Part shown: piece after piece, positions 3,283 through 54,755 of the stretch
Position numbering within the stretch: position 1 is the stretch's first letter
How the letters are laid out: each line of letters starts with the position of its first letter
Origin: a virus
Taxonomy: Duplodnaviria > Heunggongvirae > Uroviricota > Caudoviricetes
Direction: 5' to 3' (one strand)
Length of the DNA: 64,000 nucleotides
IMG/VR virus record: IMGVR_UViG_3300031992_000010
Position numbers and translations under genes: made by a program
The notes under the pieces: model-generated
Databases searched by the model: none
Told to the model about the DNA's origin: nothing
Seen by the model: only the letters and a program-made list of their open reading frames with translations

Positions 3283-3321
3283 TTCCGGAGATTTTATATA
3301 TTAATGTATAAATTAACGGAT
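3283..3321 (+). promoter_or_regulatory. conserved phage promoter-like motif (TTTATATATTAATGTATAAATTAACGGATATG)
   Basis: matches the TATATATTAATATGTAA...AGGATATG consensus repeated at least 17 times in the window. Confidence 0.5.
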
Positions 3322-3585
3322 ATGAAAAAATATTTTTATAGATTTAAGGTAATCGCCGGTGATTCAATCACCAAATATGACGGTGATTTACTTAACGAGG
3401 CCCAAATGAAACAAATGGAGGGTATCCTGTCGGAACAGGTTATGGAATCCCGTATCCGGGAAAGATTTTCAAAGGTGTATCCCGGTATGAATATCGAGGT
3501 GGAATTAAATTGGTATTCCTGTCTAAATACATACGGTCATTCGGAACGATTGATAAAACATTCTAAAATTAATATAAAATTGTAA
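3322..3585 (+). CDS. hypothetical protein (87 aa; the ORF track starts earlier at 3229)
   Basis: start chosen at the ATG preceded by the conserved GGATATG initiation context and promoter motif. Confidence 0.45.
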   Translation: MKKYFYRFKVIAGDSITKYDGDLLNEAQMKQMEGILSEQVMESRIRERFSKVYPGMNIEVELNWYSCLNTYGHSERLIKHSKINIKL

Positions 3586-3586
3586 T

Positions 3587-3778
3587 ATGGAAAGTATACA
3601 TTTTCTCCCGTGGGCGTGGTTTACAACCATTATCCTCATTTTATTGAAGGCATTCGACCTTATCAACCTGGGTTGGATTTGGGTTTTTGCACCCGTATGG
3701 GCTACCGTGGCCCTTGTGTTGGTATTATTCGTGTTTGCATTCATTATACGCCTAATATTTGCCATATTAACCGACTAA
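3587..3778 (+). CDS. small double-TM membrane protein (paralogue of 51050..51274)
   Basis: GWIWVFAPVWATVALVL versus GWSWWWVLAPIWAPVALVL in the 51050 gene. Confidence 0.45.
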   Translation: MESIHFLPWAWFTTIILILLKAFDLINLGWIWVFAPVWATVALVLVLFVFAFIIRLIFAILTD

Positions 3779-3862
3779 TTTCGTCCACAAAAATCGCGGT
3801 TTTATCGATATTTGAAAAAAATTCCCCGATTTTTGGATATGGTATAATAAAAATTAAATGTT

Positions 3863-4312
3863 ATGAAAAGGTTTATTTTAACGATTGCGATATTTTTGAT
3901 GTCCTTATTTGGATTCTCGCAAAGTATGGTACTTGTAGGTACGTCATTAGGTTTTAACCGGTCGATTATTTGTTCGACATATTCACAGGAACGTTGGTGT
4001 CATTATTGCGAATGGAATGGATGGAGTCATTACCACTATTACGACTACGTATATCCAACACGTGTTGCGACCACGATTCGTGTTTACCATTCGGCACCTG
4101 CCCACCACCCGGCACATCATCATCATTACGTACCTCCGAAACCGAAACCGACACCACAACATACGGGCACGCACAACGTGGCGCCACGTCCAAAATCAAG
4201 TTCGACGGTACGACAATCGGCACCACAACACAAGCCGTCAAGTTCGTCAAGTGTCCGGTCGTCAAGCACCCGTACATCCACACCACGTTCAACCACAAAT
4301 ACGAGGAGGTAA
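3863..4312 (+). CDS. secreted protein with Sec signal peptide and His-rich / Ser-Thr-rich low-complexity C-terminus
   Basis: N-terminal MKRFILTIAIFLMSLFGFSQS; HHPAHHHHY and SSSSSVRSSSTRTST tracts. Confidence 0.45.
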   Translation: MKRFILTIAIFLMSLFGFSQSMVLVGTSLGFNRSIICSTYSQERWCHYCEWNGWSHYHYYDYVYPTRVATTIRVYHSAPAHHPAHHHHYVPPKPKPTPQHTGTHNVAPRPKSSSTVRQSAPQHKPSSSSSVRSSSTRTSTPRSTTNTRR

Positions 4313-4315
4313 ATT

Positions 4316-4501
4316 ATGATAAAAAAATATTATGAAATTTCGTGTGATCATTGCGAATGTGCCATTAGCCACGTGGCCGAACATCCTTCCAGGAGGACAT
4401 TACAGGAATTGGGGGTGATCGTATATAGGGGCAGGCATTTTTGTTCCGAACAATGTAAAGGGGCCTACCGATGGACGATGGGTGAAATAAATATTGGATA
4501 A
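4316..4501 (+). CDS. small zinc-ribbon protein (CDHCEC...CSEQC)
   Basis: ORF track; paired CxxC motifs. Confidence 0.4.
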   Translation: MIKKYYEISCDHCECAISHVAEHPSRRTLQELGVIVYRGRHFCSEQCKGAYRWTMGEINIG

Positions 4502-4506
4502 AAGTA

Positions 4507-4537
4507 GGACCGGGATTAAATTTTCCGGTCCTTTTTT
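4507..4537 (+). terminator. intrinsic terminator hairpin GGACCGGGA-TTAAATTTT-CCGGTCC plus T6
   Basis: perfect 7-bp GC-rich stem and U-tract directly after the stop of 4316..4501. Confidence 0.6.
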
Positions 4538-4570
4538 ATATATTAATATGTAAGTTAAATTAAAAGACAA
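4532..4570 (+). promoter_or_regulatory. conserved promoter-like motif TTTTTTATATATTAATATGTAAGTTAAATTAAAAG
   Basis: repeated motif; its upstream TTAAATTT element lies in the terminator loop. Confidence 0.5.
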
Positions 4571-4601: not shown

Positions 4602-4850
4602 ATGAGTCCAGTAGTTCCACATTCGACATATACTCATCACAGTCATCATCAAGACAATTATAAACAAGTTTCGTTCACCTGTGATTCTTGTCATTCAAAA
4701 TGTTATGTAAGCATAAAAGATGATGACAATATTCCAAATGTGTGCAATTATTGTCAGATGACAACCTGTGAAAAAGCTGTATATGGCGGATTTGGAATAT
4801 TTGTTTTTATAATAATCGGAATTCTGATTGTAAAATGGTGCAGAGCATAA
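4602..4850 (+). CDS. Cys-rich small protein with C-terminal TM helix
   Basis: ORF track. Confidence 0.4.
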   Translation: MSPVVPHSTYTHHSHHQDNYKQVSFTCDSCHSKCYVSIKDDDNIPNVCNYCQMTTCEKAVYGGFGIFVFIIIGILIVKWCRA

Positions 4851-4857
4851 GAAAATC

Positions 4858-4920
4858 GGACCCGGGATTAAATTTTCCGGTCCTTTTTTATATATTAATA
4901 TGTAAGTTGAATTAAAAGGA
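4858..4920 (+). promoter_or_regulatory. second copy of the terminator hairpin plus promoter cassette (near-identical to 4507..4570)
   Basis: about 60-bp near-perfect repeat of the upstream cassette. Confidence 0.55.
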
Positions 4921-4927
4921 TAAGGAT

Positions 4928-5706: not shown

Positions 5707-5708
5707 AT

Positions 5709-5910: not shown

Positions 5911-6309
5911 ATGGAAAAATATAACAGTCACGAGGACTACGTAAGTTACGAAATAGGTGAACTCCTACAAATAAGTGGTTTTGAAGGAGATTGGCATAAA
6001 CATTGGTATGGCTATCAGGGTAAGGAACGTGCATTCCTCACCAGCGGACTATATAATTACGAATATGACGTCCCGGCACCGACATTGCAGGTTGCGGTAA
6101 AATGGGTATATGAAACATATAAGGTCCACATCCAGCCGGAGATATATTATTGTGAGGATGGAATGTCGTGGCTTGTGAAGATTTTCAAGGTGGGACCATA
6201 TAATACCACATTAATAAAAACAATCCTTCCAAATAATACAAAACAGGAGGCGATCGAAAAGGCATTGAATTATGTATTGGTAAAGATTAAAATAGAAGGT
6301 GAATTATGA
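5911..6309 (+). CDS. paralogue family A protein (EDYVSxExxxLL...APTLQVAxKW motif)
   Basis: shares motif with 13357, 13777 and 21216. Confidence 0.45.
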   Translation: MEKYNSHEDYVSYEIGELLQISGFEGDWHKHWYGYQGKERAFLTSGLYNYEYDVPAPTLQVAVKWVYETYKVHIQPEIYYCEDGMSWLVKIFKVGPYNTTLIKTILPNNTKQEAIEKALNYVLVKIKIEGEL

Positions 6310-7339: not shown

Positions 7340-7618
7340 ATGAAACCAACAATTGACGACATCAAACGTGCGGAGGCACAATTAAAACCGTGCCCATTTT
7401 GTGGGGCAAAACCAACAATAGTATTATGTGACGATGAGGGAAACATCCACGGGTTCGAATATCTCGAGGACCCATATTCAGGCATTGGATTTATGATATC
7501 ACATCCTAAAAGTCCGAACAGTGACTGCCCGTTGGCAAGTTATTGGGAGGAGACGTTATTCCCTAACATATATGACGATCCCGAACAATTGGCCCGAATT
7601 TGGAACCGTCGACATTAA
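7340..7618 (+). CDS. putative Lar-family restriction alleviation protein
   Basis: N-terminal LKPCPFCGAKPTIV motif as in Lar-like restriction-alleviation proteins; size of 92 aa fits. Confidence 0.4.
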   Translation: MKPTIDDIKRAEAQLKPCPFCGAKPTIVLCDDEGNIHGFEYLEDPYSGIGFMISHPKSPNSDCPLASYWEETLFPNIYDDPEQLARIWNRRH

Positions 7619-7664
7619 ATTTTCCCGGAATCCTTTATATATTAATATATAAAAAATAAAGGAT

Positions 7665-8027
7665 ATGGATACAAGAAATTTTACAACGAAGGAACAAAGT
7701 GAAAGATTGATCGCCTGTGGTATTAACATTGAAACGGCTGATTATACAATCTCCGGAAAAACGATTGTTGACCACGAACAGGGAAATCCCCGTGATAAAA
7801 ATGAAATTCCCTGTTGGTCGATGAATGCATTAATGGATATCGTACCGGAATCGATTATTGAAGGCACCAACCGCATTGAATATCCACTCCACATGACTAA
7901 AAGTGACGGAATGTGGACCGTTGGGTATTTTTCAGGTAATATGAAATTCTCCTCAATCGATCCGATCGATTGTTTGGTTAATATCATCGAAAGATTCAAG
8001 ATTGAAGGGCGTGAGGTAAACGATTAA
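7665..8027 (+). CDS. paralogue family B protein (IPCWSxxAL motif)
   Basis: shared motifs with 24761 and 25808. Confidence 0.45.
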   Translation: MDTRNFTTKEQSERLIACGINIETADYTISGKTIVDHEQGNPRDKNEIPCWSMNALMDIVPESIIEGTNRIEYPLHMTKSDGMWTVGYFSGNMKFSSIDPIDCLVNIIERFKIEGREVND

Positions 8028-8059
8028 TTGTGTGTAGGTAAAAATAGGAGGATAAAACT

Positions 8060-8194
8060 ATGTATAATAAGATTAAGCGTGCAATTTTAAGATTTATACT
8101 TGGCAATAAGTTTTTGGATAAAACTATTGGGCGGACAAAACTATTTATAAAAATATGTGAAAAAGAAGCACATAAAATTATATGGGAATTGTAA
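8060..8194 (+). CDS. small hypothetical protein (44 aa), not in ORF track
   Basis: strong RBS AGGAGGATAAAACTATG; MYNKIKRAILRFILGNKFLDK... Confidence 0.35.
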   Translation: MYNKIKRAILRFILGNKFLDKTIGRTKLFIKICEKEAHKIIWEL

Positions 8195-8231
8195 CTAACG
8201 TAAGTCAATTTAATTTAATCCAAATAAAACT

Positions 8232-8426
8232 ATGAAGGCAAAGGAACTCGCGGAGAAATTATTAGAATATCCCGATTTTGACGTGGAATTTACGGCGTGG
8301 GAAAAAATCGCAAACAATGAAAGTGAAGGAGGATCGTTTCCATACATAATTAAATTCAATAATGTCGAAGTGGGAGATGTGGGGCATTCCGATAAGGTAA
8401 TCCTTCTTACCGGGGAAAGTGATTAA
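8232..8426 (+). CDS. hypothetical protein (64 aa)
   Basis: ORF track. Confidence 0.4.
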   Translation: MKAKELAEKLLEYPDFDVEFTAWEKIANNESEGGSFPYIIKFNNVEVGDVGHSDKVILLTGESD

Positions 8427-8637
8427 AATGAATAAGACTATGAGAACAAATTATAACAAAATGCCAAAGGCTGTTCATAGAGACAACAAACACTATGTCA
8501 ACCAAGGACATAAGTGGAATGACACCATCGGCATAGAGGAATCTGCAAACGATTTTGAATACGGCCGTCCCTGTGAAACGGAGCCCACTTCATTCGAAGA
8601 CTATATTAGCAGAGTTCCGTATTTACGAAAAATTTAA
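8419..8637 (+). CDS. hypothetical protein (72 aa)
   Basis: ORF track. Confidence 0.4.
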   Translation: MIKMNKTMRTNYNKMPKAVHRDNKHYVNQGHKWNDTIGIEESANDFEYGRPCETEPTSFEDYISRVPYLRKI

Positions 8638-8656
8638 AATAAAACGAAAGATAACA

Positions 8657-9076
8657 ATGAAAAAGATACGCACAATATTTAAGCTTATTAATAATTTTGT
8701 ATTAAGAAAACGAGAATTTTCACTATCATTCACGAAAGAAGATAGTAAATGGTACGTGTGTTTTTCAGACTGGGGATTCAAGAAGTCCCAGCTGGAGATG
8801 GTGAGTGGTGCAAACGTCATGCTTGACAAAATGGCAGGTGATGAATTAGAAGTGCACTTGACTGTCAAGATCCCAAAAGATAAAAGTCAGCATTTTGATG
8901 ATTGCATAGAATGCAATAAAGTCGATCAGCTCGGATTGAAGTATGGTGCAACATACAAGACAAATTACGGTGATGAGTTTTGGATTTGTCCAGTGACATT
9001 GTTTGTACTCGGAAGATATCCTGAAGTCATGTACATTTCGAAAACAAGTAAAGATTATTTATATGAAAAAAATTGA
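8657..9076 (+). CDS. hypothetical protein (139 aa; start trimmed from track ORF 8555)
   Basis: first ATG after the stop of the upstream gene. Confidence 0.4.
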   Translation: MKKIRTIFKLINNFVLRKREFSLSFTKEDSKWYVCFSDWGFKKSQLEMVSGANVMLDKMAGDELEVHLTVKIPKDKSQHFDDCIECNKVDQLGLKYGATYKTNYGDEFWICPVTLFVLGRYPEVMYISKTSKDYLYEKN

Positions 9077-9266
9077 ATTTATACAGAATGACCTTTGTGT
9101 TGAAAGTACACCAACAGGAGACAAGTTATATCTCTTCAATAAGATAGAAGGTGATTCCGCTTACTTCCTTGAGACGAATATCTTTGGCGAATCGAAGCAT
9201 GTCACGTTCCCTGTTGAAGGATTAGAAAACAGAATTAGGACGACAAAATACTTAAAAACTTGGTAA
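9063..9266 (+). CDS. hypothetical protein (67 aa; start trimmed from track ORF 9003)
   Basis: ATG MKKIEFIQ with short overlap. Confidence 0.35.
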   Translation: MKKIEFIQNDLCVESTPTGDKLYLFNKIEGDSAYFLETNIFGESKHVTFPVEGLENRIRTTKYLKTW

Positions 9267-10355: not shown

Positions 10356-10481
10356 AAAACCAAATATCGGTTCGATATACATCAATAACAGGAATTGTGG
10401 GAATAAAATTAAATATTGTGTTTAATTTTTCCATAATCCTTTATATATTAATACATAAGTAAAAAGTAGGAGGATAAAATT

Positions 10482-10943
10482 ATGGAAAAAATACAAATAC
10501 CTAAAGAAATAAAGGATTACATTTTGGATGAGTTCTTTTACGATTCGGATGAAAGGGAATGGGCAAAGAAAGCAATGGACTATATAGAGGGTGGTAATTA
10601 CCCTTACTACTCCCAAGAGAATTATAACATCCAAAAAGTAAAGAGAGGACACTTTATTAGTTTTTCACGTTGTAACACTATTGACGATGCCATTAAGGTT
10701 CTTGAAAACTTAAAGTCACAAGGTTATAAAAGGTTAATACCTGATTATTGTAGTTTGGACGGGGAGGGGGATTTTGCATATAAGTTGGAAAACGAATCCA
10801 AGTACGAATATGCGAGGAGATTATGGGAAATAATCAAGGATGCAATCGAAGCACTAAAACGAAAGGAAAATGATAAAAAGTTGGAAAAGATAAAAGACCT
10901 GGAATCCCAAATAAACGATATAAAGAAAACAATCTATAAATAG
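10482..10943 (+). CDS. hypothetical protein (153 aa)
   Basis: ORF track; strong RBS GTAGGAGGATAAAATTATG. Confidence 0.5.
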   Translation: MEKIQIPKEIKDYILDEFFYDSDEREWAKKAMDYIEGGNYPYYSQENYNIQKVKRGHFISFSRCNTIDDAIKVLENLKSQGYKRLIPDYCSLDGEGDFAYKLENESKYEYARRLWEIIKDAIEALKRKENDKKLEKIKDLESQINDIKKTIYK

Positions 10944-10947: not shown

Positions 10948-11760
10948 ATGGTACAGGATGAACTAAATAAAATTCTTGAAAACCACCTCAAATGGTTAAA
11001 ACATGAGGATGGAGGTGAGTGTGCAGATTTAAGCGATGCCAATTTGTGTGGCGTCAATTTGTGTGGTGCCTGTTTAATCAATGCCAATTTGTGTGGTGCA
11101 TGTTTAAGTGGCGCCGATTTAAGTAAAGCCAATTTAAGGGATGCAAATTTGTATGATGCCGATTTAAGGGATGCAAATTTGTATGGTGCAGATTTAAGTG
11201 GGACCAATTTAAGGCAGGCCAATTTGAAGTTTGCCTACCTGGATGGAGTTAATTTAAAGGATGCAAATTTGTATGGTGCAGATTTGTTTGCCGCCGATTT
11301 AAGTAAGGCGGTTTTGACAGGGGCCAATTTAAAGCAGGCCAATTTATCCGATTCCGTCCTAATTGGAGCAAATTTAACAGGATCCTATATGGATACGGCC
11401 AATTTATCCTGGGCTGTTTTGGATAAAGGTGAGCAGTACCGTTTAGGTATGATTTTAACGGAACCAATAAAGGGTTACAAGAAAACTGCGGAAGGAAATA
11501 TTATAGAGTTGGAAATCCCGGAGGGGGCAATTGTATTCTCCATTAACAACTGCGAATGCCGGGCAAATAAGGCCACCGTAACAAAATGCGAAGGCATCCA
11601 ACATTCGTGGTTTGACCCGGGGTTCGAATACAAGGAGGGGAACACAATTAATATCAAGGAATTTAATTTACAATACAACATGGAATGCGCCGAAGGTATA
11701 CATTTTTTCCGGACAAAGGAGGAGGCGGAAAAATATACAATAGTGGACTTTGGCATATAA
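10948..11760 (+). CDS. pentapeptide-repeat protein (about 30 A(D/N)LxG/C repeats) with a ~100-aa C-terminal globular domain
   Basis: ADLSDANLCGVNLCGACLINANLCGACLSGADLSKANL... quasi-repeats. Confidence 0.7.
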   Translation: MVQDELNKILENHLKWLKHEDGGECADLSDANLCGVNLCGACLINANLCGACLSGADLSKANLRDANLYDADLRDANLYGADLSGTNLRQANLKFAYLDGVNLKDANLYGADLFAADLSKAVLTGANLKQANLSDSVLIGANLTGSYMDTANLSWAVLDKGEQYRLGMILTEPIKGYKKTAEGNIIELEIPEGAIVFSINNCECRANKATVTKCEGIQHSWFDPGFEYKEGNTINIKEFNLQYNMECAEGIHFFRTKEEAEKYTIVDFGI

Positions 11761-11854
11761 CAATAAAACCCGGTTAAATGCAATGACAACCAGGCGTGAA
11801 TATTAAATTTTCCGGGTTTTTTTTGTATGTTAATGTAAATAAAAGGATAAAGTT

Positions 11855-12631: not shown

Positions 12632-13050
12632 CAAAAGAGGAACAACAACTTTTAAAAACGGAGGATTTATCTGCGAGATTACCGTATGGGGTATGTGTTG
12701 CAAAGGGTAATATAATATATCCTCTAACAGGAATAAATGTCGCATTGGGATACGTGGAATTGGCGGTATCCGAAAGAATTTCAATCGAGGAGGTAAAATA
12801 TTATCTCCGCCCGATGGAGAGTATGACTGATGAGGAGAAGAAGGAATTTATCCACTGTTCCGGATATGAGGTTGAAGAATCGGTAAATGGAAGACATTAT
12901 GAATATCATTTAAAGGATTATGTTGGAACGCCGGAAAAACCAATTTGCAATTACAATGCAATAGTTTGGCTCATCAAACACCACTTCGACTATCTTGGTC
13001 TTATTAAATTGGGCATCGCATTGGAGGCACCAAAGGGGATGTATGTATAA
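12628..13050 (+). CDS. paralogue family C protein (C-terminal HHFDYLGLIKLGIALEAPKGMY)
   Basis: shared with 14452 and 31165. Confidence 0.45.
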   Translation: MTKEEQQLLKTEDLSARLPYGVCVAKGNIIYPLTGINVALGYVELAVSERISIEEVKYYLRPMESMTDEEKKEFIHCSGYEVEESVNGRHYEYHLKDYVGTPEKPICNYNAIVWLIKHHFDYLGLIKLGIALEAPKGMYV

Positions 13051-13293: not shown

Positions 13294-13356
13294 TTGTGAA
13301 TATTAAATTTCCCAAATTATCTTTGTATATTAAAATGTAATTTTAAATTTAAGGAT

Positions 13357-13770
13357 ATGGGACCAAAAGAAGATTACGTAAGTATTGAAACCGCCCAACT
13401 CCTAAATGAAAAGGGGTTTGATGTTCCCTGTAGGGCTGCATATATATGGAACCAGGGTTATGAATTATGCACATTATTTTCAAAACCCATTCATTTCAAC
13501 CGGGAAGGTGGACTGGAAGATTATGATGATACATCCGTACCAAGAATCTCCGCACCTACATTACAGGTGGTGATGAAATGGTTGAGGGAGATACATAACC
13601 TACACATCACAATAGACCCATATATCACCACTAAAGGAGTTATGTATACCTACAGGATTTATAACCTTGCACGGAATAAGGTATCGTTACTTAAAGCCAA
13701 GGGTGAATTTAAAAATAATGAAAGTGCATGTGAAGATGCAATTAGATATTGTCTTGAAACTCTAATTTAA
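13357..13770 (+). CDS. paralogue family A protein
   Basis: EDYVSIETAQLLNEKGFD...APTLQVVMKWL...CLETLI. Confidence 0.45.
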   Translation: MGPKEDYVSIETAQLLNEKGFDVPCRAAYIWNQGYELCTLFSKPIHFNREGGLEDYDDTSVPRISAPTLQVVMKWLREIHNLHITIDPYITTKGVMYTYRIYNLARNKVSLLKAKGEFKNNESACEDAIRYCLETLI

Positions 13771-13776: not shown

Positions 13777-14241
13777 ATGATAACAGAAGATTATGTTTCG
13801 TTAGAAGTAGCGAAATTATTAAAAGAAAAGGGGTTTGACGAAGGATGTTTCAAATATGCCATAAATGATGAGATATATAATAAAGGTGACTACGTCATTT
13901 GCTCTACGGAAGATGTTGTAGTATGTATTCCAACTCTACAAATGGCAATGAAGTGGTTGAGAAATATGGGAATAGTTATAGAAATCGCAACGCGTTGGCC
14001 TTCAAATCCTGATTTTTGTATGATTCCCTATTGCTTCCGCATTGAGGATTATCGAAAAGAAAGGGATTTAACCCGTGAACACGGAAAATATTATACGGGA
14101 TATTGCTCGAACGCAGGAATGGACGTTTTTTTAAAAGAGAATCATTTACTTTTTGACGAACTTGGTTTTGGTGAATTTCCTACCTACGAAATTACCGTCG
14201 AAGCAGCGATCAAATATTGTTTAAATTATATAATTAAATAG
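13777..14241 (+). CDS. paralogue family A protein
   Basis: EDYVSLEVAKLLKEKGFD...PTLQMAMKWL. Confidence 0.45.
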   Translation: MITEDYVSLEVAKLLKEKGFDEGCFKYAINDEIYNKGDYVICSTEDVVVCIPTLQMAMKWLRNMGIVIEIATRWPSNPDFCMIPYCFRIEDYRKERDLTREHGKYYTGYCSNAGMDVFLKENHLLFDELGFGEFPTYEITVEAAIKYCLNYIIK

Positions 14242-14245: not shown

Positions 14246-14437
14246 ATGGAAAAGTGCAAAACATGCAGGAATTTCGATTTGATGTTCAGGCCATTTTCGT
14301 GTGATCTATGGATGGAGAGACGATTGAAAGAAATGAAGACGAATGATGTCAATAAGGTGAAGGCGTGCAATCAGTTTTGTCACAAATGGGATATAATCTC
14401 AATCTATGATAGGGATAAATTGTGGAAATGGTGTTAA
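14246..14437 (+). CDS. paralogue family D small Cys protein (CKTCRNFDLMFRPFSCDLW)
   Basis: paralogue at 25599..25775. Confidence 0.4.
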   Translation: MEKCKTCRNFDLMFRPFSCDLWMERRLKEMKTNDVNKVKACNQFCHKWDIISIYDRDKLWKWC

Positions 14438-15760: not shown

Positions 15761-15830
15761 ATTATTTGACCCATATTAAATTTCCCAAATTATCTTTGTA
15801 TATTAAAATATAATTTTAAATTTATATAAT

Positions 15831-16967: not shown

Positions 16968-17023
16968 TACTACATTAAATTTTCAATACATTTTATCTAT
17001 TTTAATACATAAACTTTAAGATT

Positions 17024-20797: not shown

Positions 20798-20872
20798 CAA
20801 TCGGGATTAAATCCCCTTGGAGTTTTTTATATATTAATATATAATTTAAAGGATTAAGGATAGGAGGTAATT

Positions 20873-21215: not shown

Positions 21216-21617
21216 ATGTTAAAAGAGGATTACGTAAGTTTCGAAACGGCAAAACTCCTGAAAGATAAAGGGTTTGATGGATGTTGTTTTATGGTATACG
21301 ACAAGTATGGCGCCATTGATTATGCTATGGAATCATATGGTGTGGATGAAGTTTGTAATAGTGAATGTAGTGAGGGCGATGTTGCCGCCCCTACAATACA
21401 AACGGCAATGAGATCAATACGTGAGAAAAAAGGCCTTTGTATTGAACCATATAGAACCGCGGCCGGATATCTTTATACCATAAGCCGTATACCAACAGGT
21501 AGTTGTTTGGCGAATCCTTCGGAAGGCGGTGATGATGAGGATAGCGGTCAATGGACGACGTATGAAGGTGCCTGCGAGGCGGCAATAAAATATAGTTTGG
21601 AACATAAGTTTTATTAA
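21216..21617 (+). CDS. paralogue family A protein
   Basis: EDYVSFETAKLLKDKGFD...APTIQTAMRS. Confidence 0.45.
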   Translation: MLKEDYVSFETAKLLKDKGFDGCCFMVYDKYGAIDYAMESYGVDEVCNSECSEGDVAAPTIQTAMRSIREKKGLCIEPYRTAAGYLYTISRIPTGSCLANPSEGGDDEDSGQWTTYEGACEAAIKYSLEHKFY

Positions 21618-25598: not shown

Positions 25599-25775
25599 AT
25601 GGCGAAGAAGTGTAAGTTATGCAGGAATTTCGATTTAATGTTCAGACCATTCTCGTGTGACTTGTGGATAGAACGGCGGCTGAAAGATGGTGGGACTGAT
25701 GACGTCAACAGAGTGAAGGCGTGTAACCGGTTTGTTCACAAAGGAGATTTAATCTATGATGAATCATGGAAGTAA
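25599..25775 (+). CDS. paralogue family D small Cys protein (58 aa), not in ORF track
   Basis: MAKKCKLCRNFDLMFRPFSCDLWIERRLK paralogous to 14246..14437. Confidence 0.4.
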   Translation: MAKKCKLCRNFDLMFRPFSCDLWIERRLKDGGTDDVNRVKACNRFVHKGDLIYDESWK

Positions 25776-26919: not shown

Positions 26920-26941
26920 ACAATAAATACATACGATATTA

Positions 26942-26973
26942 AAACCACAAACCAAAAGTTTGTGGTTTTTTTA
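26942..26973 (+). terminator. intrinsic terminator AAACCACAAACC-AAAAG-TTTGTGGTTT plus T7
   Basis: perfect 10-bp stem, U-tract. Confidence 0.65.
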
Positions 26974-27030
26974 TTTAATTTTCCGGTATATCTTTATATA
27001 TTAATATGTAAATTTTAAAGGTATAAGGAT
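26971..27030 (+). promoter_or_regulatory. promoter-like motif TTAATTTTCC-N-TATATATTAATATGTAAATTTTAAAGG
   Basis: consensus motif. Confidence 0.5.
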
Positions 27031-27832: not shown

Positions 27833-27922
27833 AAAACCACAAACCCGAAATTTGTGGTTTTTTTATTTAATTTCCCGGTATATCTTTATATATTAATATG
27901 TAAATTTTAAAGGAGTAAGGAT
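27833..27922 (+). promoter_or_regulatory. second copy of terminator AAAACCACAAACCCGAAATTTGTGGTTTTTTT plus promoter motif (~90-bp near-duplicate of 26941..27030)
   Basis: direct repeat flanking the DUF285 gene. Confidence 0.55.
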
Positions 27923-28692: not shown

Positions 28693-29154
28693 ATGGATCA
28701 AAAGAAAATACAGGAGATTCGTGATCGAATTGATCAACTAAACCGCAAATTACAGGCAAATCACGAGGCGTTCATTAAAAAAATGCACAAATTAAATGAA
28801 TGCAAACAGGAGTTGGAGGATGAGATCTTTAATGATATCCTCAACCAAATGAAGGAAAAATATCTTTGTAAGGCAATAAAGGTTGTTTCCCCCTTCGGAA
28901 CGAAATATTATTTCATCGTCGATATTCAAAAGGAGTATTCGGTGGAACAATGCAATTTCAAGTTAACCGGCCGCCTTGTTTCCGATTATAATAATGGTTC
29001 CATTAATTTGGAGTCGCCGAATGAATTGGAGGACATATACCCGGTGGAATGTACCGAGTTGAATTACGAACTTGCGACAAAGGATGAATTATTGGAATTG
29101 AAGGCCAAAATGAATAAAACATTCGACACCATATTTTCCGGGCTCCTTAATTAA
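28693..29154 (+). CDS. hypothetical coiled-coil protein (153 aa)
   Basis: ORF track. Confidence 0.45.
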   Translation: MDQKKIQEIRDRIDQLNRKLQANHEAFIKKMHKLNECKQELEDEIFNDILNQMKEKYLCKAIKVVSPFGTKYYFIVDIQKEYSVEQCNFKLTGRLVSDYNNGSINLESPNELEDIYPVECTELNYELATKDELLELKAKMNKTFDTIFSGLLN

Positions 29155-29207
29155 ATTTTTCGGTATATCTTCGTATATTAATATGTAAATTTTAAAGGAG
29201 TACGGAT

Positions 29208-30440: not shown

Positions 30441-30455
30441 ATCATAACCAATGTT

Positions 30456-30924: not shown

Positions 30925-31134
30925 ATGATGACCCCGGAGGATAAAAAATATTTGGAAACCCATAAGGATTCCATCGTGGCAATAACACAGGTAGGCAATT
31001 CCATCATATTAATCCACGATGATGGTGAAACCCATAAGATTGAATGCGATGATATCGAGGCGACATATAAGGAGGTATGTTCAATAAAAAATTTCAGACC
31101 TCATTTAATTTCCCCCGAAACTTATATATATTAA
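30925..31134 (+). CDS. hypothetical protein (69 aa)
   Basis: ORF track. Confidence 0.4.
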   Translation: MMTPEDKKYLETHKDSIVAITQVGNSIILIHDDGETHKIECDDIEATYKEVCSIKNFRPHLISPETYIY

Positions 31135-31164
31135 TACATAACAAACATATAGGATAAAACCATA

Positions 31165-32771: not shown

Positions 32772-32859
32772 TACAAGGATAATATCAAATAATGACCTTC
32801 GGAATTAAATTTCCCGGGGTTTTTTTATATATTAATATGTAAATTAAAAGGAGGTAAAT

Positions 32860-33451: not shown

Positions 33452-33753
33452 TGGCTAAAAAAATTAAACCAATATTACTACCAAATCGATACGGGGATAA
33501 GAATTATCTTGTCCCGTTACAGGAATGGAAAGGTGATGCCATCACCAAAGGCGCATATAAATTCGAAGGTGATAAAAACGCCGGGGATACAATGCGTTTC
33601 ATTTTGGGTGACGATAATAAATCCATCGAGGCATTCGATCCATCCGGCGGTCCTATGTTGGGCATCGGCGATGAGGTAAGACCCGGTGAAAAAATAACCG
33701 GTATTGTATTTAAAAAAGGTGAAGGATTAATAATTTATACAACGATTGATTAA
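33451..33753 (+). CDS. hypothetical protein (100 aa)
   Basis: ORF track. Confidence 0.45.
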   Translation: MAKKIKPILLPNRYGDKNYLVPLQEWKGDAITKGAYKFEGDKNAGDTMRFILGDDNKSIEAFDPSGGPMLGIGDEVRPGEKITGIVFKKGEGLIIYTTID

Positions 33754-34843: not shown

Positions 34844-34894
34844 TATTAAATTTTCAATTCAATAGGAATATATTAATAAAAAATTATTTATAAT

Positions 34895-37939: not shown

Positions 37940-38101
37940 TTTTTCATTTTAAGGCGGTTTTAAGGCGAGATCTCAAAAAAGATATATAATTATATTATTT
38001 TTGCAAGATCTCTTGTTAAATCGAAGAAAAATGCGAAAAAATCGGATGTTTAAATTAAATATCCGATTTTATTTTTATATATTATCCAAAATCGGCAAAA
38101 A
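37940..38101. promoter_or_regulatory. long intergenic regulatory region (candidate origin/ncRNA)
   Basis: contains TTAAGGCGGTTTT, palindrome GAGATCTC-N31-AGATCTC around an AT palindrome, and the inverted repeat AAAATCGGAT-N13-ATCCGATTTT. Confidence 0.45.
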
Positions 38102-38611
38102 ATGAAAAAAAATATTACATTCGAATATCTCCCGGTACACGGCGATCCTGCAACGGTTGGTATTGAAATCGTGTTTCCTGATTTTGAGGAATATACCGAT
38201 GAGGTTGTTTTAAATGGACAATGCCTGTCCATAACAATCACGGTCGAGGATCAAATTATGGAATACCTCGACGATATGGATAAATCCGATATTATGGCAA
38301 AATATGATATGGAAATTATTATGGATTACCATATTACCCCACCGCCGGTGGATGAAATGGAGGACTTTAAAACATTCCTTTACTATTGGTGCAAGGTATG
38401 TCATATTGGCCCGGAAATGTTAATGTTGGTAATTGAATACGCCGCAAATTCAAAAACAATATTTGGATGCGGCAAGACCAATATTCAAAAACTTGCGGAT
38501 ATACTTGACGGTATCAACCTTTGTTTCAGATCGAAGGATGCCGCATATAAGGAGGCGATCCAAATAATGCGTGGTGGGGATAAAAAACCGGCCGGGATGT
38601 TAAATTTTTGA
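38102..38611 (+). CDS. hypothetical acidic protein (169 aa)
   Basis: ORF track. Confidence 0.45.
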   Translation: MKKNITFEYLPVHGDPATVGIEIVFPDFEEYTDEVVLNGQCLSITITVEDQIMEYLDDMDKSDIMAKYDMEIIMDYHITPPPVDEMEDFKTFLYYWCKVCHIGPEMLMLVIEYAANSKTIFGCGKTNIQKLADILDGINLCFRSKDAAYKEAIQIMRGGDKKPAGMLNF

Positions 38612-38659
38612 CCGGGTTTTTATATATTAAATTGTAAATTAAATTAAAAGGATATTGAT

Positions 38660-40414: not shown

Positions 40415-40471
40415 AAAAATAAACAAACGTATATTAAATTTTTGGCCCATATTGCCCATATTAAATCATTA

Positions 40472-40769: not shown

Positions 40770-40970
40770 ATGAATGAGCGGGATAAACTTATAATAAAGG
40801 TTGCAAACGTTATAATTTCGTTACAGGAATTAAATTTTGATTTTTCCTTTAATATATTAAAAACACTTGTTGATATGGACCGGGATAAATTGCAGCAATT
40901 TTATAAGGATGTCAAATCCATACCACTTAATGATGTATATGAAAAATATAATTTAACAAAACCATTATAG
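40770..40970 (+). CDS. hypothetical protein (66 aa)
   Basis: ORF track. Confidence 0.4.
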   Translation: MNERDKLIIKVANVIISLQELNFDFSFNILKTLVDMDRDKLQQFYKDVKSIPLNDVYEKYNLTKPL

Positions 40971-43879: not shown

Positions 43880-43948
43880 CCGGTCCAAAACCCTAATTAA
43901 ATTTTTGGTAATTTTTTTATATATTAAATCAAATAAAAAATTTATATT

Positions 43949-44485: not shown

Positions 44486-44537
44486 TCGTTAAATTTTCGG
44501 TAAAAATTATATATATTATTTCAAATCAAAAAATGAC

Positions 44538-48011: not shown

Positions 48012-49632
48012 GAAAATAGCCATCGATGGTTTCAAGTCCTTTTATAAAAGAACGGAAATCGATTTCGATGATGTGAAAGGTTTGTGGAGAATTTCCGGTG
48101 ATGTAGGTGCCGGAAAAACAACCATTGGCGAGGCGATAATGTATGGATTATTCGGTGATGTTAAAGGTAAGAATAACGCCGCCCTTGTCTCGTGGGGCTT
48201 AAAAAAAGGATTTATAGAGGTATGGTGTGAAAGCGCCGGCCGGGACATATATATCAAACGTGAGTTTCGACTTCAAGGTCAGGCGTCATTATATGTAACC
48301 GTGGATGGTGAGGAATTAATATTCACCAACAAACGTGATGCGCAAGGCCAACTCGAAAGTGATTACTACGATATTTCCCGGATGACGTTGGAATTGTTGT
48401 GTATAGTAAGTTTTAATAACTTCAAGTCAATCACCACATTAAACGCGGCGGATACCAAAAAGTTCCTCGACCAGGTATTTGGTTTTTATATTATAACCCA
48501 ATATGCGGACGCCACAAAGGATCTCCGGAATGAATCGATTGAATTGGAGGGGGAAATAAAACAATCCATTAATAACATCCAAATGCAAATCAATAAGATT
48601 ATTGAGATGTCCAATAAAACCAAAATTGAGGGTGATATGGATAAAACCTTTGCCGATATGAAATCCCAAATATCATTGCAAAAACAGGCGAAGGAAAAAT
48701 TCATTAAATTCCAAACCGAACAAAATAAAATACTCCGGGAACTCCAATCAAAATTGTCGGAAATTAAGACGTTGGGTCTGAATAAGAAAAAGGAAATTGA
48801 TTTCATCAAACAAGGCATATGTCCTACCTGCGGTGCCCCGATAGACCAATCACAGTTGCCTATAAAGGAAAAGGAAAAGGAAATGTTGGGTGAACAATAT
48901 AAGGAGGTAAATGAAAAATACCAAACGGTTTCCGGCAGAATCACGGACCAACAAACCAAGTGGAGTAAAATTGATACCGAGTATGGCAGTAAGATAGTGG
49001 AATTGAGTTCGTTATATAATCGTCTTTTGGATCAATCAAAACGCACAAAAATCAATACGTCCGAGATAGATAAGTTAAATGGCGATATAAAGGATTTACA
49101 GGATAAACTCCTACTTGCGGAAAAGGATACGGAGGAATGGAATCAATTATTCGATTTGTTTACAACAAACATGAGGACGAATACCCTATCGAACTTCATT
49201 CCTATCCTAAATCAAAACATTGCGCGGTATATGTCGCAATTGCACCAACCTTACGAATTGAAGTTTTCAAACGACTTCAAAAGCGAGTTGATAATCTTTG
49301 GAGTCGACCGGCCAATACCGGTGAGTTCACTTTCGACCGGTCAATTAAAAACGGTGGATATGACCGCGATGTTGGGTGTGTTGAGTGTTATTATGCATAA
49401 TGTAAATTTTAATATAATGTTTTTGGATGAGTTAATTTCCAATATGCATAGTGACCTACGTGATATGGTTTGTGAGGTGTTGCGTTCATCCTTACATAAG
49501 GATCAAACAATATTCCTCATTTCCCATACCGACCTAAACAATACATACCTCGATGGCGAGATTGAGGCCAAAATGGAAATGACTAAAAAATTCAGTAGGG
49601 AAACCACAATAAAAATCAATAAGTTTAATTAA
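48001..49632 (+). CDS. Rad50/SbcC-like SMC-type ATPase (T4 gp46-like) with zinc hook
   Basis: N-terminal KIAIDGFKSFYKRTEIDF...GDVGAGKTTIGEAI Walker A; central coiled coils with CPTCG hook; C-terminal LSTGQ signature and MFLDE Walker B. Confidence 0.6.
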   Translation: MKVKKIAIDGFKSFYKRTEIDFDDVKGLWRISGDVGAGKTTIGEAIMYGLFGDVKGKNNAALVSWGLKKGFIEVWCESAGRDIYIKREFRLQGQASLYVTVDGEELIFTNKRDAQGQLESDYYDISRMTLELLCIVSFNNFKSITTLNAADTKKFLDQVFGFYIITQYADATKDLRNESIELEGEIKQSINNIQMQINKIIEMSNKTKIEGDMDKTFADMKSQISLQKQAKEKFIKFQTEQNKILRELQSKLSEIKTLGLNKKKEIDFIKQGICPTCGAPIDQSQLPIKEKEKEMLGEQYKEVNEKYQTVSGRITDQQTKWSKIDTEYGSKIVELSSLYNRLLDQSKRTKINTSEIDKLNGDIKDLQDKLLLAEKDTEEWNQLFDLFTTNMRTNTLSNFIPILNQNIARYMSQLHQPYELKFSNDFKSELIIFGVDRPIPVSSLSTGQLKTVDMTAMLGVLSVIMHNVNFNIMFLDELISNMHSDLRDMVCEVLRSSLHKDQTIFLISHTDLNNTYLDGEIEAKMEMTKKFSRETTIKINKFN

Positions 49633-49677
49633 ATTTTTTCCGGTTTCACAATATATTAATCCATAAAAATTCAATAT

Positions 49678-52040: not shown

Positions 52041-52313
52041 ATGGAACAACAGGATAACAAACAAAAAATGGTATGGTTTTCCATACCAAAGGAGGCGATC
52101 AAAAATAAAACGGCAAAGGCGGTATTGATAGCATTTGGCGGACCGGAAATATATTCCCACAAGGATATTCCATTACAATATAAGTGTTGGCTTCCATTTT
52201 CGAGGGTGACCGTAACGTCAATGAATGCGAATATGATGAAGGTTGAGTTGCCATTATGGCTGGCCGAAAAAAGTATTGTATCACAATATGCAACTTTACA
52301 GGGCCTGAATTAA
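52041..52313 (+). CDS. hypothetical protein (90 aa; start trimmed from track ORF 51873)
   Basis: first ATG after the queC stop. Confidence 0.4.
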   Translation: MEQQDNKQKMVWFSIPKEAIKNKTAKAVLIAFGGPEIYSHKDIPLQYKCWLPFSRVTVTSMNANMMKVELPLWLAEKSIVSQYATLQGLN

Positions 52314-52354
52314 ATTTTTTGATACAACCGTATATTTTAATAAAATTTTATATT

Positions 52355-52864
52355 ATGCAATTAACAGGAAAACAAATAACCGAAAAACAAATAATCACCA
52401 ACGTAGGCGAAAAATCCATCCAGCAACAAGGGGTGGATCTCCGCCTCAAACGTATAGGCCGCATTGACTATCGAGGCGATATGGGTGAAATGGGCTTCAT
52501 TCCTGCGGATGGCAGGACATCAACGCCTAAAACCGAATGGTATGAATCCGAATTTGAACAATACTCCATAACACTAATACCCGGATATTACGAGGTTGAA
52601 TTTATGGAGGGTTGCAATATCCCGGTAAATTGTTCCTTACAATTAAAATCACGTTCGTCGGTGGTGCGATGCGGCGGTGAGATTCGTAGTGGTCAATTTG
52701 ATGCGGGATTTAAGACCGACAATATCGGATGTTTTCTAAAGGTGGAGATACCAATGAGTGTGGAAATCGGTGCGAGAATGGCGCAGGCGTTGGTATTTGA
52801 ATCCTACCCGGTGGAAAACCTATATGATGGCCAATGGCAGGGGGATAAACAAAGAAAATCATAA
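52355..52864 (+). CDS. dCTP deaminase/dUTPase-superfamily protein
   Basis: GVDLRL (Dcd VDVRLG-like) and FDAGFKT (IDPGW/IDAGYRG-like) motifs. Confidence 0.45.
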   Translation: MQLTGKQITEKQIITNVGEKSIQQQGVDLRLKRIGRIDYRGDMGEMGFIPADGRTSTPKTEWYESEFEQYSITLIPGYYEVEFMEGCNIPVNCSLQLKSRSSVVRCGGEIRSGQFDAGFKTDNIGCFLKVEIPMSVEIGARMAQALVFESYPVENLYDGQWQGDKQRKS

Positions 52865-52987
52865 AAAATCCCCGGAATTATTAACAAAAAGGAGGTTGAA
52901 AACATATTATTTATATGAATTTAATTTCCAAGTCAGTAAACAATTTTAATTAACAATATTATCAACTTTTAAAAAATTTTTAACATT

Positions 52988-54082
52988 ATGGCACAAAATC
53001 AAAATGCAAACGATGATTTCGTAAACTCGTTAATGGATTTCGATCCACAAAACCTTTCAGTTTTCAAGGAACCGGAGAAAAAGGATTACAATGTAAACAT
53101 CTACAAAACCAATCCGGTTAAGTTCTCAAAATCCGAAGATGGACACTACCGCTCAAAGGTACGTATTATTTACAATCCATTCAGTACGGAACAATCAATT
53201 GTACGTAAGGTCTCATACGCATTAACGGATGCAAATGGTTTCTTTATGGCCGATTCAAAATTGTCAACCGGCGACCGTTCCTGCCCTATATTCACGGCCT
53301 GGAAAAAGGTATGGTTCAATAAAAACAAACCGGAGGACGAACGTAAGGCATTCTGCAAGGAGGTTTTCCAGCAAAATGATGAAAACTATGTATTGGTGCA
53401 AATTTTGGAGGATGAAAACCAACCTGATCTTGTAGGTCAATTCAAGGTATGGAAATTACCAAAGGCCGTTTACGACATTATGGAGGCAAAAATGAATCCA
53501 AAGCCTGAATCAAAGAAGAAACCGGTTGCGATTATGGACTACCTATTCGGTAAACCATTGGAAATCGACGTTGCACCAGGACCTGACGATCCAAAACATC
53601 CTGAACGTAAACAACGTGAGATTTCATACTCATTATGTTCATTCGCGGACGACAGCGAGCCAATCCGTAAGATTGATAATACCCCATTATTTACGGAGGA
53701 TGAACTTGAGTTGATCGAAACGTATATGGATGCGAAGGCAAAATACGAAAAGGCAAAGGAGGCCGATAAGGCAAAGAAATTGGCCGCCGCACAGGAATTG
53801 GTACCACAGGTGCGTGAGTTGTACAAAAAGGCGTTGGATTACCTACGTGAAAATTGCCTTGACATTGTTGAGGAGGTTGGATACAAGGAATGGTCTCCTG
53901 AATTGAGTCAACGTGTGGCAAAATTCATTGCAAATGCGGTACAATTCATCGATCCAAAAACGGTAATTGACAACCCATTACTACAAGGTGCGCCTGCATC
54001 GCCGGAGGAAACAAAACAGGTTGTTGAGGAAATGCAACCGACGGTTGTATCCGGAGGTGAAACCGACGACCTTCCATTCTAA
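52988..54082 (+). CDS. single-stranded DNA-binding protein (T4 gp32-like fold) with acidic C-terminal tail ending DDLPF
   Basis: basic/aromatic N-terminal region, Cys/His cluster; acidic tail with SSB-Ct-like DDLPF; 364 aa. Confidence 0.45.
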   Translation: MAQNQNANDDFVNSLMDFDPQNLSVFKEPEKKDYNVNIYKTNPVKFSKSEDGHYRSKVRIIYNPFSTEQSIVRKVSYALTDANGFFMADSKLSTGDRSCPIFTAWKKVWFNKNKPEDERKAFCKEVFQQNDENYVLVQILEDENQPDLVGQFKVWKLPKAVYDIMEAKMNPKPESKKKPVAIMDYLFGKPLEIDVAPGPDDPKHPERKQREISYSLCSFADDSEPIRKIDNTPLFTEDELELIETYMDAKAKYEKAKEADKAKKLAAAQELVPQVRELYKKALDYLRENCLDIVEEVGYKEWSPELSQRVAKFIANAVQFIDPKTVIDNPLLQGAPASPEETKQVVEEMQPTVVSGGETDDLPF

Positions 54083-54139
54083 CAAGTAACAAACGAACCG
54101 GGTGGGAAACCATCCGGTTTAAAAAAAATATGTATTAAT

Positions 54140-54664
54140 ATGACATTTAGTGAATTAAAGGCAAAAATAATTAGAGCCTGCGGTACAACCGTTTTAAATC
54201 GCCAATTGATTGAAAAACCAACGGATGCCGGATTTAGGAAAATATTGAGGTCCTGTACAATTCCGGGATTTCAAAAATACATCCGTCAATATTTTGAAAC
54301 GGTACTTGGTAAAATACAACCCGATCCACTTTCGGAAGTAAAAATTGTAACGGAGGATGAACCTGTTGAGGTTGAGGAAATTCCTACGGAGGAACCTGTA
54401 ACCGTAACGGAGGATGAACCTGTTAAGGTTGAGGAAACCATTGAGGAACAAACGGAGGAAACAACCGAACAACCCGAACCTGTTGATGATCAGGCAGCGG
54501 ATGTGGTTGAACAACCTACGGAGGTGATAATCCCCGACGAATCAATCGAGGAGCAACCCGAACCTGTTGATGATCAGGCAGCGGATGTAGTTGAACAACC
54601 TACGGAGGAACCTGTTGAGGCCGTTGAGGCAAAACCTAAAAAGAGAAAGGGACGTAAAAAATAA
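54140..54664 (+). CDS. acidic tandem-repeat protein with basic C-terminal tag (KPKKRKGRKK)
   Basis: EEPVEVEE / EQPEPVDDQAADVVEQPTE repeats from ~81-bp DNA repeats. Confidence 0.45.
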   Translation: MTFSELKAKIIRACGTTVLNRQLIEKPTDAGFRKILRSCTIPGFQKYIRQYFETVLGKIQPDPLSEVKIVTEDEPVEVEEIPTEEPVTVTEDEPVKVEETIEEQTEETTEQPEPVDDQAADVVEQPTEVIIPDESIEEQPEPVDDQAADVVEQPTEEPVEAVEAKPKKRKGRKK

Positions 54665-54675
54665 TCGTCATCATT

Positions 54676-54755
54676 AAAAAAAAAGGTCCGGGAATTAAAT
54701 TTTTCGGACCTTTTTTATATATTAATATGTAAGTTAAATTTAAAGGATTAAGGAT
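54676..54755 (+). promoter_or_regulatory. terminator hairpin AAAGGTCCGGGAATTAAATTTTTCGGACCTTTTTT plus promoter motif cassette
   Basis: near-identical to the cassettes at 4507..4570 and 4858..4920. Confidence 0.55.

Follow-up and report, generated by a model that had tools for sequence, protein, structure and literature searches.

The window analysed here, a 64,000-nt stretch of the caudovirus record IMGVR_UViG_3300031992_000010 (Duplodnaviria; Heunggongvirae; Uroviricota; Caudoviricetes), contains approximately 26 copies of a two-box motif, roughly 40 nt in length, in which an upstream box is followed at a fixed distance by the -10-like box TATATT. This motif most likely constitutes the consensus promoter of one phage transcription class, predicted to be read by a sigma-70-family holoenzyme, with an optional terminator overlay at a minority of the copies. 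The copies are dispersed through a + strand block (3,300-59,951) of approximately 120 mostly small open reading frames (ORFs); the block is 93% coding and is flanked by small groups of - strand genes.

Matches to TTAAATTT-N15-TATATT with at most one mismatch number 24, all on the + strand, where 0.66 are expected (standard deviation 0.87, largest count 3). With a 52-nt weight matrix derived from 23 sites, 25 sites score above a cut-off of 15 bits on the + strand and none on the - strand, as compared to 0.02 in shuffled sequence. Three extra copies occur just beyond the window, two upstream and one near 65.5 kb, and are all co-oriented with the downstream genes. The spacing is rigid, with N15 the sole populated class (TTAAAT-N17-TATATT when expressed as hexamers), and the N13 matches are the same sites read through TATATATT. 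The consensus, 5'-A-TTAAAT-TTyCCGG-N6-7-TTTA-TATATT-AATATGTAAaTT-3', agrees with TTGACA/TATAAT at three of six and five of six positions, respectively. The cores of 22 of the 26 copies are non-coding, in a block where non-coding DNA makes up 7.3%, and the next start codon follows the first base of the -10-like box at a median of 33 nt. Both boxes are kept at hairpin-less sites, among them 3297, the promoter that opens the block, where there is no co-directional gene upstream to terminate. The fixed spacing of approximately 17 bp, the single orientation and the location upstream of genes are those of sigma-70 two-box promoters. No convincing separate motif emerged from a search of the regions preceding the - strand genes.

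These results largely bear out what an initial annotation of the sequence had proposed for the motif itself. All 15 of the sites it had listed carry the motif at the positions given, the constant 15-nt spacing holds at sites with and without a hairpin, and the weight matrix scan it had called for gives a strict strand bias. With approximately 26 sites in the window, its count of at least 17 was too low. The motif is not, as would have spoken against a promoter, equally common in coding DNA or on the other strand. The sequence evidence supports its two-box promoter reading by strand specificity, intergenic location, fixed start-codon distance and retention of the boxes where the hairpin is missing. 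At approximately 13 sites TATATT is directly followed by a conserved AATATGTAA (e.g. 4545-4553 and 54724-54732), with which the predicted start region reads ATG and at once TAA, a start-stop pair; ATATAA or ACATAA replaces it in other copies, so that the pair is not obligatory.

The individual sites, the candidate recognition factor and the terminator at the end of the block are given below (PWM, position weight matrix score in bits; fold energies in kcal/mol, with the hexamer forced into the loop in constrained folds; z-scores against dinucleotide shuffles).

3273..3311, + strand: promoter-like site with box TTAAATAA and TATATT at 3297, first of the block, in a divergent region, hairpin-less; PWM 26.3; constrained fold -1.0.
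4506..4553, + strand: composite site 4539, hairpin GGACCGGGA/TTTCCGGTCC around TTAAAT, then T6 and TATATTAATATGTAA; PWM 58.3; -17, z -4.13; top terminator-like match.
4858..4905, + strand: composite site 4891, near-copy of 4506-4553; PWM 55.7; -12.5, z -1.72; repeat family D6.
7614..7652, + strand: promoter-like site (promoter 7638), hairpin-less, upstream stop codon within the box; PWM 53.4; fold -0.8.
10420..10458, + strand: promoter-like site with box TTTAATTT; PWM 44.7.
11802..11840, + strand: promoter-like site with a T8 run and a long-range stem AAACCCGG...CCGGGTTT around the box region; PWM 37.6; 60-nt fold -13.1.
13302..13340, + strand: promoter-like site 13326, hairpin-less, overlapping TTG-N19-TATCTTTG, a Bacteroidota host-type match; PWM 45.4.
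15775..15813, + strand: promoter-like site 15799, hairpin-less, 98% copy of the 13302 site; PWM 48.9; repeat family D4.
16974..17012, + strand: promoter-like site, hairpin-less; PWM 37.9.
20806..20844, + strand: promoter-like site 20830 with variant box TTAAATCC, the box forming a weak hairpin GGGAT-TAA-ATCCC, then T6; PWM 43.1; -5.3, z 0.04.
26943..27011, + strand: separate canonical terminator AACCACAAAC...GTTTGTGGTT with T7 (hairpin -11.9), then promoter-like site 26997 with box TTTAATTT; PWM 54.3.
27835..27903, + strand: terminator, then promoter-like site 27889, 93% copy of 26943-27011 over 102 nt; PWM 53.8; repeat family D11.
29150..29188, + strand: promoter-like site, hairpin-less; PWM 52.4; fold 0.
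31103..31141, + strand: promoter-like site overlapping the 3' end of the upstream ORF; PWM 42.3.
32795..32842, + strand: composite site 32828, stem ACCTTCGGAA/TTCCCGGGGT around TTAAAT, then T7; PWM 58.2; -8.4, z -0.65, constrained fold -10.1; plausible, not significant against shuffles.
34845..34883, + strand: promoter-like site, hairpin-less, ahead of an RNA ligase gene; PWM 26.0.
38054..38092, + strand: weak promoter-like site with box TTAAATAT, which lies within hairpin AAAATCGGAT...ATCCGATTTT (-15.5); PWM 16.0.
38588..38637, + strand: composite site 38623, stem CCGG.CCGGG/..GACCGG around GTTAAAT, then T5, the upstream ORF ending in the hairpin; PWM 37.4; -9.2, z -0.95.
40433..40471, + strand: weak promoter-like site (promoter 40457); PWM 18.2.
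40829..40867, + strand: weak site within a called 66-aa ORF; PWM 21.4.
43896..43934, + strand: promoter-like site, box enclosed by a weak CCAAAA/TTTTGG stem, T7 run; PWM 42.3.
44488..44526, + strand: promoter-like site, hairpin-less; PWM 29.0.
49628..49666, + strand: promoter-like site, stop codon of the SbcC-like gene within the box; PWM 32.5.
52309..52347, + strand: promoter-like site ahead of a dCTP-deaminase-like gene (gene call in L121); PWM 28.6.
54684..54732, + strand: composite site 54718 with the strongest hairpin, GGTCCGGGAA-TTAAAT-TTTTCGGACC, then T6; PWM 54.3; -18.9, z -5.05.
55702..55740, + strand: weak site with exact hexamers TTAAAT-N17-TATATT ahead of the helicase-sigma operon, TAAATTTG next at 55737; PWM 14.8.
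59034..59951, + strand: sigma-70-family factor with regions 2 and 4, candidate recognition factor; Pfam Sigma70_r2, TIGR02937 67.3 bits (cut-off 42.9), SigA structure alignment.
59958..59981, no strand assigned: stand-alone bidirectional intrinsic terminator with a 4-nt loop at the convergent block end, detected on both strands; -15.4, z -4.14.

The embedded hairpin is a minority feature, clear in three copies and found in up to about nine on lenient criteria. Constrained folds reach -8 kcal/mol or below at five of the 26 sites and -5 kcal/mol or below at seven, and hairpin-less copies amount to between about half and 17-19 of the 26, or two thirds. Clearly non-random hairpins occur only at 4539 (z -4.1) and 54718 (z -5.05), with that at 4891 moderate (z -1.7), while sites 26997 and 27889 have a separate canonical terminator directly upstream of the box instead. 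Motif copies contain six of the block's intergenic + strand terminator-like hairpins, and a further two lie just upstream of a copy. The intrinsic terminator pattern, in which a unit ends in a G+C-rich stem-loop and a T-tract, is present at 4506-4538, 4858-4890 and 54684-54717 (T-tracts at 4532-4538, 4884-4890 and 54711-54717), plausibly also at 32795-32827 and 38588-38622, and is missing from approximately 17 of the 26 copies. The longest T-run in the 10 nt preceding TATATT averages 5.9 at hairpin sites as compared to 3.1 elsewhere (Mann-Whitney p=0.001; Spearman rho -0.65). As the T-run tracks the hairpin, the T-tract belongs to the hairpin module and not to the promoter consensus.

The stems vary among sites around a constant TTAAAT loop. 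Aside from the window pairs GGACCGGGA/TTTCCGGTCC and GGTCCGGGAA/TTTTCGGACC, covarying stems are found in the IMG/VR contigs 3300021387_000593 (GGTCCATAA/TTATGGACC and GGACCGGAAA/TTTTCGGTCC) and 3300028833_000283 (ACCCGGGAA/TTTCCGGGT), as well as 1.5 kb past the window end (GGTTTCCAA/TTGGAAACC). Across nine sites, nine of ten stem pairs differ on both sides of the loop, and the chosen register is the best of all slid registers. The T-run association, the stem diversity around a fixed loop and the covariation test together suggest that, where present, the embedded hairpin behaves like an intrinsic terminator; the stand-alone structure at 59958-59981 is the reference for an unconstrained terminator in this phage. 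The initial annotation had seen a genome-wide terminator-promoter cassette, with the box in a hairpin loop at 17 or more sites, that insulates each small-gene cassette. Embedding of the box in the preceding terminator holds for a subset of sites, but the wider claim is overstated, given that most copies are terminator-less and the operons average four to five genes.

In the proposed mechanism, the upstream and -10-like boxes, rigidly 17 bp apart, would be read by the bacterial core RNA polymerase together with a sigma-70-family factor, and each of the approximately 26 copies would head a + strand operon of one to about ten small genes. Transcription would start approximately 7 nt past TATATT, leaving 5' untranslated regions (UTRs) of about 12-30 nt. 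At the minority of copies, the intrinsic terminator of the preceding operon would be laid over the promoter, with termination predicted at the T-tract. The terminator loop, which is free in sequence, would carry the upstream box, and the 17-bp promoter spacer would carry the 3' arm (7-10 nt) and the U-tract (5-8 nt). This would be the sole register without conflict, since the constrained parts of each signal occupy the free parts of the other. Overlaid stop, restart and leader take up approximately 75 nt (e.g. 4851-4927), as compared to approximately 110 nt where the terminator is separate (26920-27030).

The motif family is also the dominant dispersed repeat in the window. Near-identical copies, the basis on which cassette shuffling by recombination had initially been proposed, do exist: 26936-27037 and 27828-27929 share 93% identity over 102 nt, while 4496-4569, 4848-4921 and 54675-54748 are 84-86% identical (copies span 74-102 nt). 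Several short public contigs begin at or beside motif copies (L124, L125 and L126 at 54677-54719, L133 at 27915, L130 and L131 at 27959), and the repeat evidently breaks metagenome assemblies. In T4-type phages, PeSLs (promoter-early stem-loops), which combine an early promoter (N17), a stem-loop terminator and a ribosome-binding region, are repeated in ORFan-rich regions and have been implicated in modular shuffling (Arbiol et al. 2010, PMC2839356; Comeau et al. 2014, PMC4122927). By this precedent, the 50-100-nt element could be a mobile regulatory cassette that, in addition to its role in transcription, serves as a preferred homologous recombination substrate through which the flanked small genes are shuffled, inserted and deleted. 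The high identity of the copies (84-93% over 74-102 nt) and the contig starts at 54677, 54719 and 27915 accord with this. A comparison of approximately 50 kb in a few strains revealed four real strain-level indels; in two of them, one breakpoint falls within the leader directly behind a promoter copy. In strain L176, a 1.57-kb cassette (window 7661-9228) is replaced by 535 nt, with the left breakpoint in the 5' UTR approximately 20 nt past the -10 box of promoter 7638. Directly behind promoter 40457, strain L130 has a 284-aa pentapeptide-repeat gene that is missing from the window, where the deletion extends from the leader on. None of the four indels is bounded by two motif copies, however, and those at 26354 and 7045 have no nearby motif; selection would favour breakpoints between genes in any case. 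Apparent cassette swaps at 54505-54676 and 40352 were rejected as runs of N in the scaffold, and a gene replacement near 43949 (178-aa versus 139-aa) as a small indel. Shuffling at the motif is thus weakly supported by the single breakpoints and not by exchange between copies, and a mobile cassette is a possible but doubtful explanation of the element.

A 210,090-bp contig (ENA ERZ27257202:k141_6601392) includes the window, and near-identical strains are found in several other public assemblies, with individual proteins occurring on 13-15 contigs each. Sources of these contigs are ENA ERZ27257202, ERZ27256871 and ERZ28612940 and NCBI AUXO01, which may be rumen data sets. A DNA similarity search of 20 kb of the window against deposited phages yielded no match, and relatives are detectable at the protein level only (25-28% identity). 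The helicase is 25-28% identical to those of PAU, the Chryseobacterium phages MA9V-1/2 and the Tenacibaculum phages PTm1, PTm5 and pT24. As the host of PAU is actually a Sphingobacterium (PMC3738902), every detectable relative infects Bacteroidota. By these protein relatives the uncultured phage is a T4-related jumbo myovirus, placed with the 'group 2' jumbo phages, which encode sigma factors and lack an RNA polymerase of their own (PMC7824862). A-rich upstream regions and the lack of a Shine-Dalgarno sequence, both typical of Bacteroidota (PMC6847099, PMC7366714), characterise most window genes. The first gene after a promoter copy usually has tandem purine boxes, AAAGGA-N2-3-AAGGAT, touching its ATG (4905-4927, 27011-27030, 27903-27922, 29188-29207, 54732-54755 and other promoter-proximal leaders). 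Approximately ten other genes have a canonical GGAGG at normal spacing (e.g. 4316, 8060, 10482, 17309, 21798, 55097 and 59034), which is odd for a presumed Bacteroidota phage.

The motif could be recognised by a host factor, by the phage sigma encoded at 59034-59951 or by another phage sigma. The sigma encoded at 59034-59951 scores above the cut-off of the sigma-70 family model, with both regions 2 and 4 present. Relative to SigA, its DNA-contact residues in regions 2.4 and 4.2 are different, so that its specificity is not predictable from sequence. No homologues of this sigma were detected in PAU, MA9V-1 and PTm1 (tblastn, 1e-3). The IMG/VR contigs with the same motif, including its leader GTAAGTTAAATTTAAAGGAT, have only a 31%-identical sigma-like ORF in common with the window, and may be other parts of related genomes. 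While occurrence of the motif in unrelated phages would point to a host sigma, an IMG/VR scan for the extended -10 17-mer found the two-box motif only in the same three related contigs and is therefore uninformative in this respect. A Methanosphaera metagenome-assembled genome, the one match among 185,579 genomes scanned for the extended motif, was rejected as a host, the match being due to chance and the genome having no homology to the window.

Several observations weigh against reading the motif as a promoter with an optional terminator. The motif lacks the Bacteroidota sigma-A promoter (TTTG/TAnnTTTG) of a host that is itself presumed from the relatives, and a generic TTGACA/TATAAT scan shows no enrichment (90 against 84.2 expected), which suggests a distinct specificity class. 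The helicase-sigma operon which includes the sigma gene follows a weak motif copy (exact hexamers TTAAAT-N17-TATATT), which argues against simple dependence on the phage sigma. The hairpins at 32828, 38623 and 20830 are no better than shuffles. The proportion of paired cells in the covariation test (78.9% as compared to 62.5% in shuffles, with 0 of 500 as good) is inflated by the picking of sites for folding, and compensatory diversity is its informative part. Both promoter and terminator activity are, moreover, predicted from the sequence alone. With regard to host-type signals, the octamer TAnnTTTG is not enriched on the coding strand of the window (42 on the + strand and 53 on the - strand), and a match of this type occurs only at the duplicated sites 13326 and 15799, where it overlaps the phage motif. 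At 13294-13331 and 15765-15804, TTG or TTTG and TATCTTTG, approximately 19-20 nt apart, form a full Bacteroidota -33/-7 promoter match, and TAAATTTG occurs at 55737, 10 nt ahead of the helicase start.

The box-in-loop layout is not restricted to this phage. In the 43 kb of PAU examined (JQ362498 23018-66260), six intergenic sites contain ACTGAAACT and then (T)TTCGTAGTATAAT, corresponding to cTGAAAc-N17-TATAAT.

2449-2512, 3261-3406, 7895-7982, 12742-12821, 15919-15981 and 16336-16435 (in JQ362498 23018-66260): PAU box sites with loop ACTGAAACT, then TTTCGTAGTATAAT.

Hairpins of -14 to -19 kcal/mol, with different but complementary stems, are formed at five of these six sites. The box is the loop in four, so that PAU, with its 28% identical helicase, repeats the layout of the window around another box. 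As in the window, a conserved upstream box serves as the loop of covarying stems, a -10-like box follows at a sigma-70-like distance and the elements precede + strand operons. The PAU elements differ in the box (ACTGAAACT) and -10 region (GTAGTATAAT), in the presence of a hairpin at five of six box sites rather than at a minority, and in a T-tract of only 3 nt after the stem, which makes a terminator function less obvious. No published description of these PAU elements was found. A second class of PAU sites, TTAGTATAAT, lacks the box. In MA9V-1 and PTm1, a canonical Bacteroidota -7 element (TATATTTG) occupies the equivalent intergenic positions, and at five of 18 such sites in PTm1 a terminator hairpin abuts the -7 box and covers the -33 region. 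The MA9V-1 promoters also have a conserved ACATGTC box approximately 14 nt upstream of TATATTTG (10537-10642, 18402-18499, 25035-25135 and 29724-29819), which is a terminator loop at one PTm1 site (33416-33578) and may be an activator site shared in this phage group.

Such boxes bring to mind an activator-dependent promoter. T4-type phages use an activator, MotA, for their middle promoters, and the PmSLs of nt-1 support this type of middle promoter strategy among them (PMC4122927). In the window phage, the box ATTAAATTT would then be bound by a phage activator and only the -10-like box by sigma. At 9 nt, the box is longer than a hexamer, it is wholly different among the relatives (TTAAATTT here, ACTGAAACT in PAU and ACATGTC in MA9V-1) and the TTAGTATAAT sites of PAU do without it. 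The rigid 17-bp spacing equally suits sigma region 4, however, and no MotA/AsiA-like gene was found among the part of the window ORFs screened, making activator dependence rather unlikely. The recurrence of the layout with TTAAAT here and ACTGAAACT in PAU, with covarying stems in both, could further suggest that placing the box in a terminator loop is a selected, lineage-wide design of T4-related jumbo phages infecting Bacteroidota and not a packing accident. It would serve a phage sigma or activator orthogonal to the host sigma-A and couple termination and initiation within one 45-bp stretch; the polymerase could, for example, be handed over, or read-through transcription or a forming hairpin could gate access to the box. 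This is a speculative extension to which only a low probability is given.

A conserved loop on covarying stems is also what is seen in protein-bound RNA hairpins, and the element could be an mRNA protein-binding or processing signal (antitermination or an RNase site) with TATATT as a U/A-rich tail. Yet 17-19 of the 26 copies keep both boxes at exact spacing without a hairpin, the first copy has no upstream transcript and the distance to the start codon is fixed, all of which render an RNA-level function very improbable. Least probable of all is a DNA-hairpin promoter of the N4 virion-polymerase kind, in which cruciform extrusion would offer the box single-stranded to a phage polymerase: the box-in-loop layout does recur in the window phage and PAU, but about two thirds of the copies have no inverted repeat and do not resemble N4-type promoters, the hairpins go with T-runs as in RNA terminators, 'group 2' phages are reported to lack an RNA polymerase (PMC7824862) and no polymerase gene was found among the large ORFs screened.

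The + strand block encodes two RNA ligases, an SbcC-like ATPase, QueC, a dCTP deaminase, a gp32-like protein, the 1,092-aa helicase and the sigma-70-family factor (59034-59951). A pentapeptide-repeat gene with a 15-nt period is found at 10948-11760 and a gene with seven 75-nt (25-aa) repeats at 27031-27825, the latter differing in length among strains (264 versus 214 aa). A second pentapeptide-repeat gene (L130 12707-13561) is present or absent among strains after promoter 40457. Small-gene families with paralogues within the block occur at 5911-6309, 13357-13770, 13777-14241 and 21216-21617, with further pairs at 16519-16735 and 18462-18678 and at 14252-14399 and 25608-25755 (families D10, D14-D17 and D20 are among the paralogues). 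These paralogous genes indicate that the early-type region has probably undergone repeated gene duplication. No Rfam family reached the gathering score in the window and no tRNA was found in it. The 137-nt gap at 30441-30577 holds CCCGGTTCGAGTCCGGG, a string resembling a tRNA T-arm; ARAGORN and Rfam detected no tRNA at this location, the sole match being a chance miRNA. Within the 1,084-aa - strand ORF at 59980-63234, for which no Pfam or PHROG match was found, strains that are 99% identical elsewhere carry a replaced or strongly diverged segment at 62177-62605. Its flanks are 79-90% identical and its middle unalignable, a pattern typical of a putative receptor-binding or host-range domain.

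For this uncultured giant phage, which exceeds 210 kb and recurs in several public metagenomes, the motif provides a promoter consensus that can be tested, together with an operon map. The notable part is a promoter specificity that is not of the presumed host type and a design, though not a sequence, in common with PAU. As the consensus of the motif is unlike the Bacteroidota type while related phages use the host type, both phages may bring their own promoter specificity. Were this the case, the 45-nt stop-and-restart module would offer an off-the-shelf, compact expression part for Bacteroidota; were the motif read by a host sigma, it would represent ordinary phage gene organisation.

Among known systems, the primary-sigma promoters of Bacteroidota (-33 TTTG / -7 TAnnTTTG) are linked to the window by the hosts of its relatives, the missing Shine-Dalgarno sequences and the A-rich upstream regions, but their boxes are about 19-21 bp apart as compared to 17 bp here, and the motif consensus does not conform to them. 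Phage promoters may also be read by phage sigma factors such as gp28 of SPO1. Further such promoters are those read by the sigma-70-family factors encoded by phiEco32 and 7-11 (PMC8948821). Like these systems, the window combines a full-length sigma with regions 2 and 4 and a phage-specific consensus unlike that of the presumed host. In the model phages, however, sigma serves middle or late genes rather than the bulk of small early-type genes, while in the window the sigma gene is itself downstream of a motif copy and is linked to the motif only as a candidate. The closest likeness is to the PeSLs. These are likewise intergenic elements of approximately 50-100 nt with a strong two-box promoter (N17), a terminating stem-loop and a ribosome-binding region, and occur as tens of repeats among small ORFan early genes. 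PeSLs also lie near strain indels. Recombination between two copies was not seen in the window. Their stem-loop varies in position, most commonly lying between the -35 box and the -10 box or over the latter, whereas in the window, as in PAU, the register is fixed with the loop as the upstream box. The window element further differs in having the hairpin in a minority of copies only and in a promoter that is not of the (presumed) host consensus type. The arrangement is nonetheless not as unusual as initially proposed, since PeSLs are composite promoter/terminator motifs whose stem-loops fall into five positional subclasses, some overlapping the -35 box (PMC2839356, PMC4122927). As judged from its composite structure, the window element appears to fit the PeSL description, which would extend such motifs, so far those of T4-type coliphages and vibriophages, to distant jumbo phages of Bacteroidota.

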